A DNA stretch of 44,051 bases. Source: Myxococcota bacterium. Its GTDB lineage: Bacteria; Myxococcota_A; UBA796; GCA-2862545. Under the pieces are notes generated by a model. It saw only the letters and a program-made list of their open reading frames with translations, was not told where the DNA came from and searched no databases. Shown here piece after piece: positions 2,168-44,051 of this stretch (position 1 is the stretch's first letter; every line of letters begins with the position of its first letter). The position numbers and the translations under genes were made by a program. Where the stretch lies: contig JBCCQY010000065.1 of assembly GCA_039208735.1 (NCBI GenBank), positions 1-44,051 of the forward strand. The letters are read 5' to 3'.

Positions 2168-2926
2168 ATGATGTGGCTGGTACTGGCGATAGGCTGCGAT
2201 CTCACCGAGATCGTCGATCAGATCGACGGGATTACCAATCCGCTCGTCACCGAAGCCCTGGTGCTTGGCGTGGCGGAACCCGCCGACGAACGGATCGACT
2301 TGTCCTCCATCGGCTACGATCCTGGAGCCAACGCGACCGTATTCCTCGCCAACGCCTCAAACGTCAACGATCTCGACAATGCCCTGGTCTCTGGGGCCAC
2401 GGTGACCGCAAGCGATGGGCCCACCTCGGCAGAGCTCCCCGAACGCGAGAACGGCGTCTATGTGAGCAACCCCGGATCTGGACTCGACTACGTGCCCGGT
2501 CGGACCATGACGATCTCCGCGGTGCTGGACGATCGCTCGGGGAGCGGCGCGCTTGAGCTGCCCGAAGGCGCCGGGCTCGGGATCATGGAGGATCACATGG
2601 TCGGCGAACCGATCGAGGTCGATGTGACGGGCAAAGGCTACACGGGCTCACTCATCGTGGTGTTCGATACGACCTCGGGCCGTGTCACCTACAGCAACGA
2701 GCCCACCGACGCCCGGGGCGTCTACGACCTCACCCGCGGCACCACCGAACTGACAATGGTGACCATCCCCGGCAAAGCCTTCCCCGACGAGTCGGTCTAC
2801 GCACTCGGGTTCGCAGGCCTCGTGCACACGGGCTCGGACGACTTTGAAGGGTTGAACACCCTACTTTCCGGCATGGTGGCCGGACAGCTCGAGTTCTACC
2901 CCGTGGTCACAGTGCCCCTGCCTTAG
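2168..2926 (+). CDS. Putative lipoprotein
   Basis: GGAGG RBS at 2158-2162. Short signal MMWLVLAIGC with a lipobox-like Cys, followed by a beta-rich body. Confidence 0.75.
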   Translation: MMWLVLAIGCDLTEIVDQIDGITNPLVTEALVLGVAEPADERIDLSSIGYDPGANATVFLANASNVNDLDNALVSGATVTASDGPTSAELPERENGVYVSNPGSGLDYVPGRTMTISAVLDDRSGSGALELPEGAGLGIMEDHMVGEPIEVDVTGKGYTGSLIVVFDTTSGRVTYSNEPTDARGVYDLTRGTTELTMVTIPGKAFPDESVYALGFAGLVHTGSDDFEGLNTLLSGMVAGQLEFYPVVTVPLP

Positions 2927-38825: not shown

Positions 38826-40217
38826 GTGACCCCCGTACGTGTTGGGCCCATCGCTGAAGCGCGACGGCTCGTAACGCTCGCCTGGCCTGTGATTCTGGCC
38901 CAGCTAGGCATGGTGCTCATGGGCGCCGTCGACCTCTGGATGGTCGCTCCCCTGGGCGAAGCTGCAACAGGTGCGCTAGGACTTGGCAATACGTATAGTT
39001 TTGCCCTGGTCATTCTTGCATTGGGGACCGCCACCGGCGTCGATCCCCTGGTCACTCAGGCCTACGGGGCCAACCAGCCACGACGCGCAGGGCTCGCGGC
39101 CCTGCAAGGCATGCTCGTCGTGGGCGGGCTGGGCGTGCCCATCATGGCGCTTCACACGGTCGCTCCCACCGTATTGGGGGCGCTCCAACAACCTCCCAAC
39201 CTCCTGCCCCTCGCCGACGCGTACTGCACCATCAACGCCCTAGGGATCGCACCCCTACTCGCCTTCGCCGTCATGCGGCAGTGGCTCCAAGGCGATGGCG
39301 TGATGCTCCCCGGCATGTTGGCCATTGGCGTGGCCAATGTGGCGAACGTCGTAGGCAACGCATGGCTCATCGAGCCCTATGGGGTGGCCGGTGTGGCGTG
39401 GAGCACCGTGATCGTACGTTGGCTCGCGCTGTTTGTGCTTATCGCCATCAGCCATCGTCCGCTGCGTCGTTCGTGGCCCGATGCACCCGTCCTGGACCCA
39501 ACCGCATTGGTGCGCCTGACCACCATCGCCTTTCCGGTTGGCGTGCAGGTTGGTCTTGAGGTGTGGGCGTTCAGCAGCGCCGCCCTGCTCGCCGGCTCCC
39601 TTGGCACGACCGCAGTGGCCGCACATGTATCGGCCCTCAATGTGGTCGCCCTTGCGTTCATGATGGCCAATGGACTGTCCGCGGCCGCCGCGACTCGAGT
39701 GGGCAATCTGGTGGGCGCAGGGCAACCTTGGCCCACCGCAGCCACGATGGCCTTGGGGTTGGTCGTCGGCTTCATGAGCGTCACGGGACTTGTCTTTTTC
39801 ACCTTCCCGGAGACGATTGGGCGAGTGTACGCCTCCGACCCCGAGGTCGTCGCCCTTATCGCCGCGGTCCTGCCCGTGGGGGCCGCGTTTGGGCTCTTCG
39901 ATGGGCTGCAGGTCGTCGCGTTCGGCATCCTTAGGGGCCTTGGCGATACCCGGGTGCCCTCTACGTTCAACCTCATTGGCTACTGGATGCTCGGGCTGCC
40001 ACTTGGCGCGCTGTTGGCCAACACGTCGCTCGGCCTGGTGGGCGTGTGGGTCGGATTGGCCGTCGCACTCGTGATCGTGGCCGGATTGCTGGGCCTCCGG
40101 ATTCGTTGGCACGCAAACATGGATCGCAACTCGCGATCCGCGGATCGAATTTCGATCATCGAGGCAAAACCAATGCAACCCTCCGTTGCAGCTCAAAACC
40201 AGGAATCTTCTCCTTGA
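38826..40217 (+). CDS. MATE family efflux transporter (NorM-like)
   Basis: LAWPVILAQL, VDLWMVA, RVGNLVGAG, FDGLQVV..GILRGLGDTR and ~12 TM helices. Confidence 0.95.
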   Translation: MTPVRVGPIAEARRLVTLAWPVILAQLGMVLMGAVDLWMVAPLGEAATGALGLGNTYSFALVILALGTATGVDPLVTQAYGANQPRRAGLAALQGMLVVGGLGVPIMALHTVAPTVLGALQQPPNLLPLADAYCTINALGIAPLLAFAVMRQWLQGDGVMLPGMLAIGVANVANVVGNAWLIEPYGVAGVAWSTVIVRWLALFVLIAISHRPLRRSWPDAPVLDPTALVRLTTIAFPVGVQVGLEVWAFSSAALLAGSLGTTAVAAHVSALNVVALAFMMANGLSAAAATRVGNLVGAGQPWPTAATMALGLVVGFMSVTGLVFFTFPETIGRVYASDPEVVALIAAVLPVGAAFGLFDGLQVVAFGILRGLGDTRVPSTFNLIGYWMLGLPLGALLANTSLGLVGVWVGLAVALVIVAGLLGLRIRWHANMDRNSRSADRISIIEAKPMQPSVAAQNQESSP

Positions 40218-40246
40218 CGTCGAGGAGTCAGCTTGTCATTGCGTAG

Positions 40247-40375
40247 ATGAACACAGCAAGCCCCTCTCACGGGAGGTTCGAAGTGCACGTCGCCGACTGG
40301 AACATCGCAATGATGAAGTCCTTTGTGGCAGGCAACCTTCGGTACCTGCCCAGTGACAGAGAGGGGCGGCCCTGA
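40247..40375 (+). promoter_or_regulatory. Putative leader uORF 1 (42 aa) of an attenuator
   Basis: Encodes MNTASPSHGRFEVHVADWNIAMMKSFVAGNLRYLPSDREGRP*. Its last codons contain GAGAGGGG, complementary to the 5' arm of terminator 1. A TTGACG -35-like hexamer lies at 40214. Confidence 0.5.
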
Positions 40376-40401
40376 AAAGGCCCAGCGCGTAACCCGCGAA
40401 G

Positions 40402-40434
40402 AACCCCTCTCGAATCACTCGAGAGGGGTTTTTT
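40402..40434 (+). terminator. Intrinsic terminator 1
   Basis: AACCCCTCTCGA-ATCAC-TCGAGAGGGGTT followed by TTTT (12-bp stem). Confidence 0.85.
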
Positions 40435-40571
40435 CGTTGGGATGAACGCGGTGGGTCGCTCCGGATCTCGTCATTCTGGTCCACCCTGCCATTTCAACTT
40501 GCTTTGGGCGCACTGAACCGAGTGTCTGCCAACGCACCCGTGCGCACACAATTGTGTGCAAAGGCGGGGGT

Positions 40572-40661
40572 GTGGGCAGCTCGCTGAATCACGGTTGGGT
40601 GTCCCAGCTGATCTTGAACAACACCGACGTTGACCTCCCGCCGGGGGAGGATGTGCGCTGA
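40572..40661 (+). promoter_or_regulatory. Putative leader uORF 2 (29 aa) of an attenuator
   Basis: GTG start after AAGGCGGGGG; encodes MGSSLNHGWVSQLILNNTDVDLPPGEDVR*. CCGGGG at 40641-40646 is complementary to the 5' arm of terminator 2. Confidence 0.45.
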
Positions 40662-40684
40662 CCCGACCGTCACCACATCCCAAG

Positions 40685-40719
40685 AAGCCCCGGCTCCTCT
40701 ATGGAACCGGGGCTTTTTT
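40685..40719 (+). terminator. Intrinsic terminator 2
   Basis: AAGCCCCGGCTCC-TCTAT-GGAACCGGGGCTT followed by TTTT. Confidence 0.85.
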
Positions 40720-40858
40720 GTTGCCGACGCCGAGCGCGCCGGCCCGCCCTCGCTTTGCCAATAACAAAGCTTTAAGCTTTATTTTTCTCCAAAAATTAGT
40801 GGACGCAAATCCGAGGAGGCCATAAATCAAAACCAGAACGAGCGACCGACGCTCGTTG

Positions 40859-40930
40859 GCACCTGGAGCTCGATGGATGAGCACCTGGCTACGAACCAGG
40901 GAGGTGGGGGTTCGAATCCCTCCGGGTGTA
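40859..40930 (+). tRNA. tRNA-Arg(ACG), atypical D-arm
   Basis: GCACCTG GA GCTC GATGGAT GAGC A CCTGG CTACGAA CCAGG GAGGT GGGGG TTCGAAT CCCTC CGGGTGT A. Confidence 0.85.
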
Positions 40931-40988
40931 CTTTCTCTCTTTGACATTCCGCATCCGAATCACGGTTATCGCACAACGTTTCGATTGT

Positions 40989-41062
40989 GTTGAGTGGAGC
41001 TGGTCTGGAATAGCGCCAGATTGTGAATCTGGAGGTTGCCGGTTCGAATCCGGCCACTCAAC
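40989..41062 (+). tRNA. tRNA-His(GTG), atypical D-arm
   Basis: G(-1) TTGAGTG GA GCTG GTCTGGAA TAGC G CCAGA TTGTGAA TCTGG AGGTT GCCGG TTCGAAT CCGGC CACTCAA C. The G-1:C73 His identity pair is present. Confidence 0.85.
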
Positions 41063-41067
41063 TTCTT

Positions 41068-41138
41068 GCCTTGGTAGCTCAAGTGGAAGAGCACCCGAGA
41101 TGTCTTGGAAGGTGTGGGTTCGAGTCCCACCCACGGCA
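41068..41138 (+). tRNA. tRNA-like RNA with truncated anticodon loop (no assignable anticodon)
   Basis: GCCTTGG TA GCTC AAGTGGAA GAGC AC CCGAG ATGT CTTGG AAGGT GTGGG TTCGAGT CCCAC CCACGGC A. Confidence 0.75.
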
Positions 41139-41310
41139 GGCGGCGGCAATGAGGTCGCCAACTTCGGCCCAATCCCGGGCCCCCAACCCGAGGAGGCGTT
41201 GGATGGACAATTCGGAGGGTGGTGCCGGTCGCAAGAGCGACTCGCAGTGCACCCCCCATGACGATCCGGGTTCCGACACGGACGTCAACCCTAGGGGCTT
41301 AGGCTCCACA

Positions 41311-41382
41311 GCTTGATTAGCTCAATTGGCAGAGCGCCCGGACGGTCGCCGGGAGATGTAGGTTCGAATCCTACATCAGGCA
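41311..41382 (+). tRNA. tRNA-like RNA, nominal Thr(GGT), non-canonical anticodon loop
   Basis: GCTTGAT TA GCTC AATTGGCA GAGC G CCCGG ACGGTCG CCGGG AGAT GTAGG TTCGAAT CCTAC ATCAGGC A. Confidence 0.78.
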
Positions 41383-41394
41383 TCCAGGAGAGGA

Positions 41395-41476
41395 GCGTAC
41401 CGTGACGCACGGATGCGGGCGTGACCCGCGGGAACGTCGCCGCGAGATCAAGACGTGACAGCCCGGAGAGACGGGC
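41395..41476 (+). ncRNA. Candidate structured RNA (hairpins plus possible pseudoknot)
   Basis: Stems CCGTG/CACGG, CGCGG/CCGCG and GCCCG-GAGAGA-CGGGC. The loop ACGTC can pair with downstream GACGT. Confidence 0.4.
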
Positions 41477-41697
41477 ACCCTTCTTTTTGCAATGTGGATT
41501 TCGCCTGGCTCCGGGTTGGCTCTGAAAGGACCTTCGAATCTCGTAAGGCCTCGGGCCGTGGGGGCTCGGAGCCAGGCGGTGCTTACCCTCTATGGCCCGA
41601 CACAGAGTCTAACCCCGCGTAGATTTCTCGTGACAGACTCGACCCAGATGAGGTCTTAGCGCTAACTTTTCTCTGCGGTAACGCTCGGGAGCCCACG

Positions 41698-42306
41698 ATG
41701 AACGCGGTACTGGTTCTCAATGCCGACTACTCCCCGCTCCGCGTGGTGCCATGGCAGCGCGCAATTGGCATGTTGCTCGACGACAAGGCGTCGCTCGTGC
41801 AGGCCTATGCGGACCGGATGATTCGTTCGGCCACGCTTTCGCTACCGCATCCGGCGGTGGTCGCCCTGCACCGTTACTCGAAGTTTCGTTGTCGGGTTCG
41901 GTTCAATCGTGCCAATGTTTTGGCTCGTGACCACTACACCTGCCAGTACTGCGGCGCGCGTCCGCGCCGGGTCTCGGGTCGCCCCGACCTCACGGAACTC
42001 ACCATCGACCACGTCATTCCCCGAGCCCAGGCCCGCGAGGGCAAGGTGTTCACCTTGGGGCGGTGGCGTCCGGTGACGTGCTGGGAAAACGTGACGACGG
42101 CGTGCGTGGACTGCAACGTAGCCAAGGCGGACCAGACGCCCCGCGAGGCGGAGATGGTGCTCCGCAATGCCCCCAGGGTGCCCACCCACCTCGATATGTT
42201 GTGGATGGCCCTGTTCAGCGTCGACATCCCCGAGGAGTGGCGCGAGTTCTTGCCCGAGGACTCACCTTGGCGTGCGTACTGGACAGCCGAGCTGTCGGCC
42301 TGCTAG
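41698..42306 (+). CDS. HNH endonuclease (McrA/COG1403-like)
   Basis: VLVLNADYSPL, RANVLARDHYTCQYCG, TIDHVIP and WENVTTACVDCNVAK. Confidence 0.93.
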   Translation: MNAVLVLNADYSPLRVVPWQRAIGMLLDDKASLVQAYADRMIRSATLSLPHPAVVALHRYSKFRCRVRFNRANVLARDHYTCQYCGARPRRVSGRPDLTELTIDHVIPRAQAREGKVFTLGRWRPVTCWENVTTACVDCNVAKADQTPREAEMVLRNAPRVPTHLDMLWMALFSVDIPEEWREFLPEDSPWRAYWTAELSAC

Positions 42307-42343
42307 ACGTGCGCCGGGCGCCGGGGCCCGGAGCTTGTCACTC

Positions 42344-42538
42344 ATGCACGAAGACATCGAAGACGACGAGACGACGCACGAGATGGATCCGCCGACGTTG
42401 CTGCCACCCGTGCGAAGTCCCGATGACCTCCCCGCGGGCAACATCAAGGAGGGCACCCTGTGCTTGGTGACCAACGAAGCCCAAGGCACCGAGCAGCTCT
42501 GGACGTTTCGGGACGGGGCCTGGGCGCCCGCGATCTAA
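42344..42538 (+). CDS. Small hypothetical protein
   Basis: 64 aa ORF MHEDIEDD...GTLCLV...LWTFRDGAW that fills the gap between HNH and glnS. Confidence 0.5.
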   Translation: MHEDIEDDETTHEMDPPTLLPPVRSPDDLPAGNIKEGTLCLVTNEAQGTEQLWTFRDGAWAPAI

Positions 42539-44051
42539 TCGTCCGCGAGCGCCGACCCTACGAGATCCTGCACAATCTGAGGCTTCGCGCTCCGGTCGAA
42601 GTGCTTGAGCACCTGACCGATGAAGAAGCCTGACATGTCACGACCCGACCGATGGGCCTGGACCCGATCGGGATGGTCGGCCACCAACTGCGCAACCACC
42701 GGCTCGATGATCGCCGGATCGGTGATGAGCCTTAGGCCCTTCGCCGCCATGATCGCCTCGGGGTCTCCCCCTTCCGCAAGCATGCTGTCCAGCACCTGTT
42801 TGCCCATGGCATGGCTGATCTTGTCCGCATCTTCAAGAGCCACCAGCTTGCCAATCGCCGACCCATCAAAGGGCAGATCCTCAATGGGCCTGTCCTTCAC
42901 GACCCGGGCCAGCTCGTTGGCCACCCAGCTCGCGATGCCCTTCGGATTGTCATGTGTCGCAAGCGCAGCTTCGAACAGCCCAAGCAGCCCAGGATGATCC
43001 TGCAACGTAGCGGCTTCAGAGTTTGAAAGCCCCTGACCCACGAGCCGCTCGCCAACCTCGGTAAGCGGACGCACCGTCTTGGTCTTGCCCTTCTTCACCT
43101 TCGGCTTTTTCGAAGTCGGGGGCGGCGGCTCGATCTTGGGTCGGTAGGAGTCCTTGAGCGGCACAATTCGATTGAACACGAGCCGCTCCGGCGTAGCGTC
43201 TTCATCCACGATGAAGAAACCCGTCCGTTCGAACTGCACCCGTTCGCCAGGCTTCGCATCCGCAAGGCTGGCCTCGACCTGCGCCTCCTTGACGACGAGG
43301 GACTCGGGGTTGAGCTGCTCACGCCAGTCGTCACCGGGATGCTCGACGGTAAACAACCGGTCGTAGAGCCGGACACAGGCCGTCTTCGAGGTCTCTGCAT
43401 CGACCCAATGGATGGTCGCGCTCACCTTGGTCCCCTCGGGCACCTTGCCGCGAGGCACCGAAGGGTCGATGCTCACCCGCACTTGGGTGACCTCGCCCGC
43501 CTCGTTGGTGTCGTAGCCGGTGCAGGTGATGACGTGCGCATAGCGCAGTCGAACCGCCCGCCCTGGCGCCAACCGTCGAAATCCCTTTGGCGGCTCGATT
43601 GCGAAGTCGGTGCGTTCAATGAACAGGCGGCCGGAAAACGGCATGGGCCGTGTGCCTTCCTTGGGCACATCGTGCGGCCAGTAGCTGCCGTCGATCGTCT
43701 CGGGCGGTACCTCCCCCTCGATGACCACCTCGATGGGGTCGAGCACGGCCATGACACGAGGCGCCTCGGTGTTGAGATCGTCTCGAATCACACTCGCGAT
43801 GAAGGTGGGATCCACGACCGAACTCGACTTGGAAACGCCCACCTCCTCCATGATGCGGCGAATCGCGGTCGGGCGCACGCCCCGACGTCGGTAGCCTGCG
43901 ATCGTAGGCATGCGGGGATCGTCCCAGCCCTCAACGTGGCCTTCCGAAACCAGCAAGGTGAGCTTGCGCTTGCTCATCACCGTGTAGGGAAGATTGAATC
44001 TGGCAAACTCGAACTGACGAGGCCGGGGGTCTTCCACGGGAAGGTTCTCGA
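42535..44051 (-). CDS. glnS: Glutaminyl-tRNA synthetase with C-terminal GatB/YqeY domain (5' partial)
   Basis: EFARFN, MSKR, GWDDPRMPTI.G.RRRG, TIHWV, RLYDRLF and QFERTGFF. The extension WVANEL...GFFIGQVLK is YqeY-like. Confidence 0.95.
   Translation of the reverse strand, partial: ENLPVEDPRPRQFEFARFNLPYTVMSKRKLTLLVSEGHVEGWDDPRMPTIAGYRRRGVRPTAIRRIMEEVGVSKSSSVVDPTFIASVIRDDLNTEAPRVMAVLDPIEVVIEGEVPPETIDGSYWPHDVPKEGTRPMPFSGRLFIERTDFAIEPPKGFRRLAPGRAVRLRYAHVITCTGYDTNEAGEVTQVRVSIDPSVPRGKVPEGTKVSATIHWVDAETSKTACVRLYDRLFTVEHPGDDWREQLNPESLVVKEAQVEASLADAKPGERVQFERTGFFIVDEDATPERLVFNRIVPLKDSYRPKIEPPPPTSKKPKVKKGKTKTVRPLTEVGERLVGQGLSNSEAATLQDHPGLLGLFEAALATHDNPKGIASWVANELARVVKDRPIEDLPFDGSAIGKLVALEDADKISHAMGKQVLDSMLAEGGDPEAIMAAKGLRLITDPAIIEPVVAQLVADHPDRVQAHRSGRDMSGFFIGQVLKHFDRSAKPQIVQDLVGSALADD

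Follow-up and report, generated by a model that had tools for sequence, protein, structure and literature searches.

A probable reduced HNH-linked tRNA operon behind candidate switchable terminators in a Myxococcota genome

Accessory tRNA arrays are widespread, and to our knowledge the array of Anabaena is the only one whose function and control have been tested. Here we analyze a 44,051-nucleotide (nt) stretch of DNA from a Myxococcota bacterium (GenBank assembly GCA_039208735.1, contig JBCCQY010000065.1, positions 1 to 44,051; hereafter the window), in which four tRNA or tRNA-shaped genes precede a gene for an HNH nuclease, and we compare it with the closest described systems. In Anabaena (Nostoc) PCC 7120, the trn operon is silent by default, and it and its HNH gene are co-induced by ribosome inhibitors (Santamaria-Gomez et al. 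2021, PMC8421152); the available text of the same paper lists L-arrays in 'all classes of Proteobacteria'. According to the available text of a second study, no coding gene is found more widely in mycobacterial arrays than that for the HNH endonuclease (Morgado & Vicente 2018, PMC5966550).

Like the trn operon of Anabaena, the cluster in the window consists of same-strand, tightly spaced, supernumerary tRNA genes accompanied by an HNH gene of the same family, and its presence among related genomes appears patchy. Unlike that operon, it has only four members, two of which are likely non-decoding, and its HNH gene lies downstream rather than upstream of the array. Control also appears to differ, with a terminator/antiterminator leader here and direct-repeat operators that overlap the -10 box in Anabaena, in a paper whose available text does not use the word 'terminator' (PMC8421152). 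The array units of Mycobacterium genomes, plasmids and phages share with the window an HNH gene and an embedded structured RNA that is not a tRNA, of about 430 nt there against ~100 nt for the element called E3 here; they hold tens of tRNAs, on plasmids or phages, and the available text describes no leader attenuator and contains neither 'promoter' nor 'pseudo' (PMC5966550). A plasmid of Mycolicibacterium sp. CBMA 213 encodes a homolog of the window's HNH protein (38% identity over 81%).

The leader upstream of the cluster holds two terminator modules, and resembles the trp, his and antibiotic-sensing leaders in combining an intrinsic terminator with a predicted, mutually exclusive antiterminator, whose strand, in the first module, is overlapped by the end of a short open reading frame (ORF). 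It is unlike leader-peptide attenuators in that a run of sensor codons is absent, that the frame at the second module, termed R1, is not conserved, that a promoter-like site follows the switch, and that the target would be a set of stable RNA genes and not an amino-acid or resistance operon. A further parallel is SegB of phage T4, a GIY-YIG-type enzyme. Its gene also lies beside a tRNA cluster, the inheritance of which it is proposed to promote (cited in PMC8421152), whereas the nuclease described here is a chromosomally encoded HNH protein.

A full-text literature search found no tRNA arrays in Myxococcota, and a search for leader attenuators before bacterial tRNA arrays returned only CRISPR and yeast engineering papers among the matches listed. 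The locus is a known kind of element, familiar from cyanobacteria and mycobacteria, in reduced form; apparently undescribed are its leader, which is specific to one family and predicted to act as a switch, and its conserved, probably non-decoding RNAs of tRNA shape. We consider it probable that it is a reduced HNH-linked accessory tRNA operon, likely with its own promoter and with upstream read-through past two switchable terminators. It offers testable handles: a conserved leader that accompanies arrays within a single myxobacterial family, a graded set of natural variants with 0, 3, 4, 13 and 37 tRNAs placed between this leader and the nuclease gene, and tRNA-shaped members kept folded by selection though apparently non-decoding. 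If it is true that the leader responds to the state of translation, it would provide a second, RNA-based route to spare tRNAs beside the cyanobacterial repressor route.

The tRNA cluster and its HNH gene

A preliminary description of the window, made from its letters without database searches, had reported ~1.5 kb without a normal protein gene between the MATE gene and glnS, and what it had observed there proved right in nearly every detail. The MATE gene occupies 38826-40217 and the HNH ORF 41698-42306; the 1480 nt that separate the MATE stop (40217) from the HNH start (41698) contain no ORF with a family match. Genomes are labelled G000 for the window's own and G001, G002, etc. for related ones. 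The principal features of the interval and its terminal gene are as follows.

40859-40931, plus strand: spare tRNA-Arg(ACG), Rfam tRNA 54.2 bits, normal anticodon loop CUACGAA, no encoded CCA
40990-41062, plus strand, with an encoded G-1 at 40989: spare tRNA-His(GUG), 55.7 bits, C73
41067-41139, plus strand: tRNA-shaped RNA X, Rfam tRNA 44.7 bits, 'tRNA-???' in ARAGORN
41311-41382, plus strand: tRNA-shaped RNA Y ('Thr-GGU'; 'Thr-GGT' in ARAGORN), 57.2 bits, 7-nt loop ACGGUCG
41698-42306, plus strand: HNH nuclease gene, 202 amino acids, with an N-terminal beta-rich domain and a zinc-finger HNH domain

ARAGORN and the Rfam tRNA model, both among the checks suggested in the preliminary description, agree on four same-strand tRNA-model genes within 524 nt. 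They comprise the two atypical tRNAs and the two tRNA-like RNAs with defective anticodon arms that had been noticed from the sequence. The anticodon loops of Arg and His are normal and 7 nt long, but at the positions of U8 and A14 in the model both genes carry G8 and G14. They keep G-1/C73, A20 and C35, which we take to be identity elements. The same G8 and G14 occur in the G001 ortholog of Arg; tRNAs normally have a U8-A14 tertiary pair. The acceptor, D and T arms of X are tRNA-like, and its anticodon arm can be drawn in two ways, with a stem of 5 bp closing a 4-nt loop or with one of 3 bp closing an 8-nt loop. In Y, the loop gives C33 and C37; this RNA keeps G1:C72, C2:G71, G35 and U36, presumably identity elements for threonyl-tRNA synthetase (ThrRS). 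Since U33 and a purine at position 37 are present in 49 of 49 scored housekeeping tRNAs of this genome, and the X and Y loops are unlike any of them, X and Y likely cannot decode normally.

The three readable anticodons (Arg-ACG, His-GUG and Thr-GGU) all duplicate housekeeping genes of the draft genome, which consists of 288 contigs, in agreement with the earlier proposal of spare tRNAs. Canonical Arg-ACG and His-GUG genes lie on contigs C114 and C233, respectively. ARAGORN found no second Thr-GGT in the draft, but the end of contig C58 cuts a gene with the normal loop UUGGUAA, following Thr-UGU, Tyr and Gly-UCC, indicating that a housekeeping Thr-GGU exists and is cut by the assembly. The window's Arg is 81% and 79% identical to the array Arg-ACG genes of other genomes versus 75% to its own housekeeping gene, and its His is closest to the array His of G002. 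Three observations concern the draft genome itself: with the housekeeping tRNA-Thr(GGU) cut at C58:1-58, counts of tRNA genes in this draft come out too low; ARAGORN also reports a tRNA-Ile(UAU) of canonical appearance at C1:105568-105640; and several of its over-long calls of 93-96 nt (Ile-AAT, Arg-TCG and Gly-TCC) look like false positives.

The folds of the cluster were compared with those of G001, where gene order matches the window (MATE, array, HNH, small ORF, glnS), by scoring stem changes by eye on the alignment. Arg, X and Y together show five compensatory pair changes and zero disruptive ones. The G001 Arg ortholog is 92% identical, with anticodon UCG instead of ACG and one compensatory stem change; X has three such changes, in the acceptor and T stems, and retains its odd arm sequence; Y has one, in the T stem, and the same loop type. 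As far as this alignment goes, X, Y and Arg appear to keep their folds through compensatory changes, and the reduced copy is, on this evidence, still under selection. Near-identical X-spacer-Y pieces, from 40916-41347, are present in DNA contigs of two other studies; the four DNA runs concerned gave only fragmentary contigs, and the joints in these are tRNA cross-matches.

The HNH gene with which the cluster ends, as had been described, is intact. It matches Pfam HNH PF01844 (2.3e-8, 34.5 bits against a cut-off of 21.4) and PHROG 16726 (8e-29), and keeps the motif CxxC...DH...N...CxxCN, with C82, C85, D104, H105, N131, C136, C139 and N140 invariant in 14 sequences. The structural model has a predicted local distance difference test (pLDDT) value of 87.8; its structural matches are to HNH domains alone and are weak (best E 0.02), and the N-terminal domain has no Foldseek match against the PDB at E <= 0.001. 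IscB was considered and rejected, as the NCBIfam equivalog reaches 26.9 bits against a cut-off of 175, in the HNH part only; Rfam gives no match to HEARO RNA in 40100-42400.

With tblastn, HNH homologs were found on Nostoc plasmids (11 records) and on Mycobacterium and Mycolicibacterium plasmids, and the protein thus belongs to a family that stands beside both cyanobacterial and mycobacterial arrays. The homolog on plasmid delta of Nostoc PCC 7120 (NC_003273.1; 33% identity over residues 1-173, E 7e-18) lies directly upstream of 24 ARAGORN tRNAs. This homolog at the Nostoc trn operon, taken with the arrays of related genomes, identifies the cluster as a reduced member of the HNH-linked long tRNA arrays.

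An HNH homolog is encoded in 20 of 41 related genomes, and 16 of these loci were examined with long flanks. ARAGORN places same-strand arrays directly upstream of HNH at three of the 16 (G001, 3 tRNAs; G002, 13; G013, 37), and Rfam adds three tRNA-likes of 125-129 nt in G021 and one weak tRNA at a contig end in G004. Array sizes in related genomes reach 13 (G002), 37 (G013) and at least 13 (G050), and most of these arrays open with Arg and then His, as in the window. Patchy distribution and changing location of arrays are generally taken as a sign of horizontal spread. Within one genus, arrays are variously present, absent or of different size. The neighbourhood of glnS and HNH is common to G000, G001 and G003, which fits vertical descent there; the G002 copy sits elsewhere, with neither MATE nor glnS as neighbour. 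Further afield, five of 80 loci from named genomes, belonging to two Myxococcota-type and three Anaerolineae metagenome-assembled genomes (MAGs), have at least five same-strand tRNAs just upstream of HNH. On a quick tree of 97 HNH rows, the array label falls on nine rows and needs at least 3 changes. These comparisons support treating the tRNA cluster and the HNH gene as parts of one module.

Other tRNA-like genes next to HNH were noted in passing. Five of 123-129 nt lie directly upstream of HNH in G021 (locus L015, 2196-3096, minus strand) and G013 (L009, 2192-2946, minus strand). They have canonical acceptor, D and T arms, with a structured insert of 57-66 nt in place of the anticodon arm or ahead of it; a stem and an inner hairpin are common to these inserts, with sequence covarying between the two genera, and ARAGORN missed these genes or called only part of one. 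G002 and G004 share, as the element nearest to HNH on its upstream side, a non-canonical tRNA-Glu(UUC)-like gene (L003 in G004, 2179-2251, minus strand; L004 in G002, 1333-1405), 85% identical between the two, with an odd D arm and compensatory acceptor changes; it is seen by Rfam and not by ARAGORN.

Leader element R1 and the upstream module

The preliminary description placed two modules, each an upstream ORF (uORF) followed by a terminator, ahead of the cluster. Both terminators stood up; the first uORF has a conserved frame in two genomes only, and the uORF of the second module is not supported by comparison. The leader features are the following.

40310-40375, plus strand: uORF1, 21 codons from the ATG at 40310 or 20 from a second ATG, TGA at 40373-40375
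40359-40434, plus strand: attenuator-like module 1, with the stem of terminator T1 at 40399-40428 and its U-tract at 40429-40434
40624-40724, plus strand: leader element R1 (~100 nt), 87.4 bits here with covariance model R1
40634-40639 and 40645-40650, plus strand: hairpin P1 of R1, CCUCCC paired with GGGAGG
40641-40647, plus strand: antiterminator strand CCGGGGG of R1
about 40649-40681, and 40682-40719, plus strand: middle hairpin and terminator T2 of R1
40756-40858, plus strand: A/T-rich stretch with a promoter-like TGGACG (40800-40805), 17 nt, TAAATC (40823-40828), read by eye

T2 (40682-40719) folds at -25.8 kcal/mol with a z-score of -4.7, and T1 (40399-40434) at -29.4 kcal/mol with a z-score of -5.4; in each case, 0 of 200 shuffles fold as well. 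The T2 sequence is conserved in G001, G013 and G023, and these three sequences together with that of G000 were used to build the R1 covariance model. At E <= 0.01, the model finds R1 in 22 of 49 genomes of the family; at E <= 1e-4, the figures are 11 of 45 in the family and 0 of 105 in six sister families.

The census of R1 loci returned 20, four of them being the training sequences. At half of them (10/20), a same-strand tRNA starts 67-280 nt downstream of R1, and a second R1 copy in G023, with an array ~170 nt downstream, brings the array-preceding loci to 11. In G021, R1 is followed by the long tRNA-likes and then HNH, and in G003 by HNH, 262 nt downstream; six other loci have nothing downstream, and at another an odd call lies at a distance of 1.2 kb. 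The first R1 copy of G023 (L130/L031) is followed by ~2.5 kb with three ORFs and then HNH, with no tRNAs; the second, elsewhere in that genome, precedes at least 7 tRNAs.

Folding of the leaders without the 3' arm of the terminator gives one common antiterminator in 13 of 13 cases, in which a CCGGG-type strand pairs with the terminator 5' arm around the middle hairpin (z-scores from -1.19 to -5.94, at or below -2 in ten of them). The sequence of the middle hairpin differs completely between genera, and the antiterminator strand and terminator arm covary in one pair, GCCGGG/CCCGGC versus GCCCGG/CCGGGC. In the predicted folds, hairpin P1 can in turn sequester the antiterminator strand. Mutually exclusive terminator and antiterminator structures are thus predicted for R1/T2 as well as for T1, and R1 has the predicted anatomy of a conditional terminator, expected from the models to act as a switchable transcription stop.

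ATG-started uORFs are found at R1 in 4 of 13 leaders. The candidate peptide here, (M)NNTDVDLPPGEDVR, has no codon run, and no conserved protein was found upstream of R1 across genera. A conserved stop 24-33 nt before the T2 arm, seen in 13 of 13 leaders, was discounted, because any-frame stops are expected there and open frames are long in GC-rich DNA.

In module 1, the last codons of uORF1 contain GAGAGGGG (40359-40366), the 5' strand of antiterminator 1, and uORF1 ends 6-8 nt past this strand. GAGAGGGG pairs with CCCCUCUC, the 5' arm of T1, in a structure that encloses two small hairpins and competes with T1. With the 3' arm withheld, antiterminator 1 is the minimum-energy fold in the window (z-score -3.82) and in G001 (z-score -2.14), where the inner hairpins differ in sequence. 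The G001 counterpart of uORF1 has 19 codons, a 3-nt in-frame indel and the same stop point; the frame is thus conserved, but in only two genomes (G000 and G001). The uORF1 peptide, MMKSFVAGNLRYLPSDREGRP, has no run of sensor codons. A blastn search with 40200-40860 matched only G001 among 49 family genomes, the remaining hits being terminator-like matches of 20-36 nt. Judged by its predicted folds and frame, module 1 looks like a uORF attenuator, in two genomes only.

Between R1 and the first tRNA, GC content drops to 0.53 in the A/T-rich stretch, and an 8-bp hairpin (40837-40857) abuts the first tRNA. A homologous A/T-rich stretch is present in G004, and a TTGACR/TGGACR hexamer can be seen by eye in about 10 of 13 related leaders. 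With this promoter-like site downstream of R1, the attenuators may not be the only, or the main, control of the array.

Competing explanations

Several results weigh against a reduced HNH-linked operon with switchable terminators. The promoter-like site between R1 and the first tRNA means that the switch may not govern the array, and the promoter itself rests on reading by eye, a stricter consensus scan of 40000-42600 having returned none. The R1 uORFs have no conserved frame, those of G013 and G050 differing relative to P1. Many tandem, closely spaced tRNAs on one strand, the mark of 'long' arrays, which reach 43 genes, are missing here, where there are only four members. The module is eroding in this genus, as His is undetectable by ARAGORN and Rfam at the matching place in G001 and no tRNAs lie between R1 and HNH in G003. 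Finally, 88 of the 97 HNH rows, including 58 of 58 alphaproteobacterial ones, are without an array, and HNH alone therefore does not imply one; the expectation that arrays recur upstream of HNH homologs was borne out in G001, G002, G013 and five distant MAGs, and failed in these 88 rows.

The preliminary description had drawn the whole locus together, and from the sequence we may infer, at most, one ribosome-sensing operon with decoys. In its full form, a single unit would start after MATE, in which two serial ribosome-sensing attenuators gate spare tRNAs, decoys and the nuclease, and which is induced by impaired translation. The conserved antiterminators at both terminators, the end of uORF1 just past the antiterminator strand with its frame kept across the G001 indel, and the linkage of R1 to arrays across the family are consistent with such a unit, as is the induction of the Anabaena array and HNH by ribosome inhibitors (PMC8421152). 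The promoter-like site and A/T-rich stretch that precede the first tRNA downstream of R1, in this genome as in most related ones, the absence of a conserved uORF frame at R1 and of sensor-codon runs, and the restriction of module 1 to two genomes argue against it; moreover, according to the available text, control in Anabaena is by a repressor at direct repeats and not by attenuation (PMC8421152). We regard this full form as unlikely. T1 and T2 could instead be plain terminators, T1 ending the MATE transcript and T2 shielding from upstream transcription an array promoter that would drive the tRNAs as in other stable-RNA operons, with antiterminators that have no regulatory role. T1 indeed lies ~180 nt past the MATE stop and is flanked on each side by A- and U-tracts, as a bidirectional terminator would be, the promoter-like site is downstream of T2, and only in 5 of 13 leaders do the strand/arm duplex energies clearly beat shuffles, with no more than 5% of these as good. 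Against this, the T2 sequence is conserved between genera in which HNH protein identity is down to about 50%, and all 13 leaders share the alternative fold, with a completely different middle hairpin and one covarying pair. We consider this reading, taken as a whole, somewhat unlikely.

The remaining alternatives concern the RNAs themselves. If the cluster were a dying remnant, with Arg, His, X and Y as pseudogenes and only the HNH gene functional, the loss of His in G001 and of all tRNAs in G003, the wide variation of array sizes within the genus and the likely inability of X and Y to decode normally would be readily explained. The five compensatory and zero disruptive stem changes between G000 and G001, the near-identical X-spacer-Y pieces in contigs of two other studies, and the retention of G-1/C73, A20, C35 and normal loops in Arg and His speak against decay, which we think improbable. 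X and Y might also be tRNA mimics that act outside decoding, as aminoacyl donors in non-ribosomal chemistry, anticodon-nuclease decoys, or handles by which the HNH transcript or enzyme is processed or recognised. Their folds are conserved while their loops stay non-decoding, Y keeps the presumed ThrRS positions, and other non-canonical tRNA-likes stand directly before HNH in related genomes (the G002/G004 pair and the long-insert forms of G021 and G013); on the other hand, the ORF list and family matches show no partner enzyme nearby, and the non-canonical elements vary from genome to genome. This specific role is, in our estimation, improbable.

In the reduced HNH-linked operon that we favour, a single precursor transcript would span the cluster, and RNase P and RNase Z would process it. 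Spare decoding would fall to Arg and His, and X and Y would be kept for a non-decoding job. The leader would raise expression when its translation, or a factor acting on it, is disturbed, and HNH would be a nuclease of homing type, through which the module is maintained or spread. A bolder reading, which we put forward as doubtful, is that R1 and the stacked uORF attenuator gate an HNH-linked spare-tRNA operon whose non-decoding tRNA-shaped members are sensors, decoys or handles, and that bacteria have repeatedly wired accessory tRNAs to RNA switches that report on translation.

Other elements of the locus

Two further features were listed.

41383-41480, plus strand: element E3, with a strong Shine-Dalgarno sequence, a GTG-started micro-ORF (MTHGCGRDPRERRREIKT) and three hairpins
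40546-40561, no strand: perfect 16-bp palindrome GCACACAATTGTGTGC, read in the sequence

Each of the five genomes of the genus carries E3. Its hairpins end in GCCCG-GAGAGA-CGGGC and a U-rich tail, and two of its 26 predicted pairs show compensatory changes. The micro-ORF starts with GTG or ATG, follows the pattern MxHGCG..PxERR, and has in-frame indels in four of the five genomes; the frame differs in G004. E3 is placed after a tRNA or tRNA-like gene, except in G003, where it directly follows the putative promoter without tRNAs, and in G002 it lies inside the array.

The structured spacers reported earlier are present, with folding that is only modest (unremarkable z-scores of -1.85, -1.24 and -2.17). 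Besides tRNA, no Rfam family reaches its gathering score in 40100-42400, where YrlA, mascRNA, asX2 and other matches are sub-threshold and T-box gives no match at E <= 1. In particular, YrlA, a bacterial Y RNA, was rejected, with 25.1 bits against a gathering threshold of 69; its match spans the His T arm and the X D arm and is a junction effect of tandem tRNAs.

Both palindromes of the preliminary description are in the sequence, GCACACAATTGTGTGC and the AAGCTT repeats (about 40767-40779). A GCAC[AG]...[CT]GTGC palindrome near R1 occurs in 4 of 14 leader loci (G000, G001, G013 and G049) at differing positions, and was rejected as a shared operator on these grounds; the GCACA...TGTGC palindromes could be an operator, on thin evidence. 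In G013, the palindrome GCACA...TGTGC lies at about 708-725 of locus L129.

Between HNH and glnS, an ORF of 64 codons (42344-42538, plus strand) has no Pfam, NCBIfam or PHROG match; its G001 counterpart is 69% identical over 48 residues.

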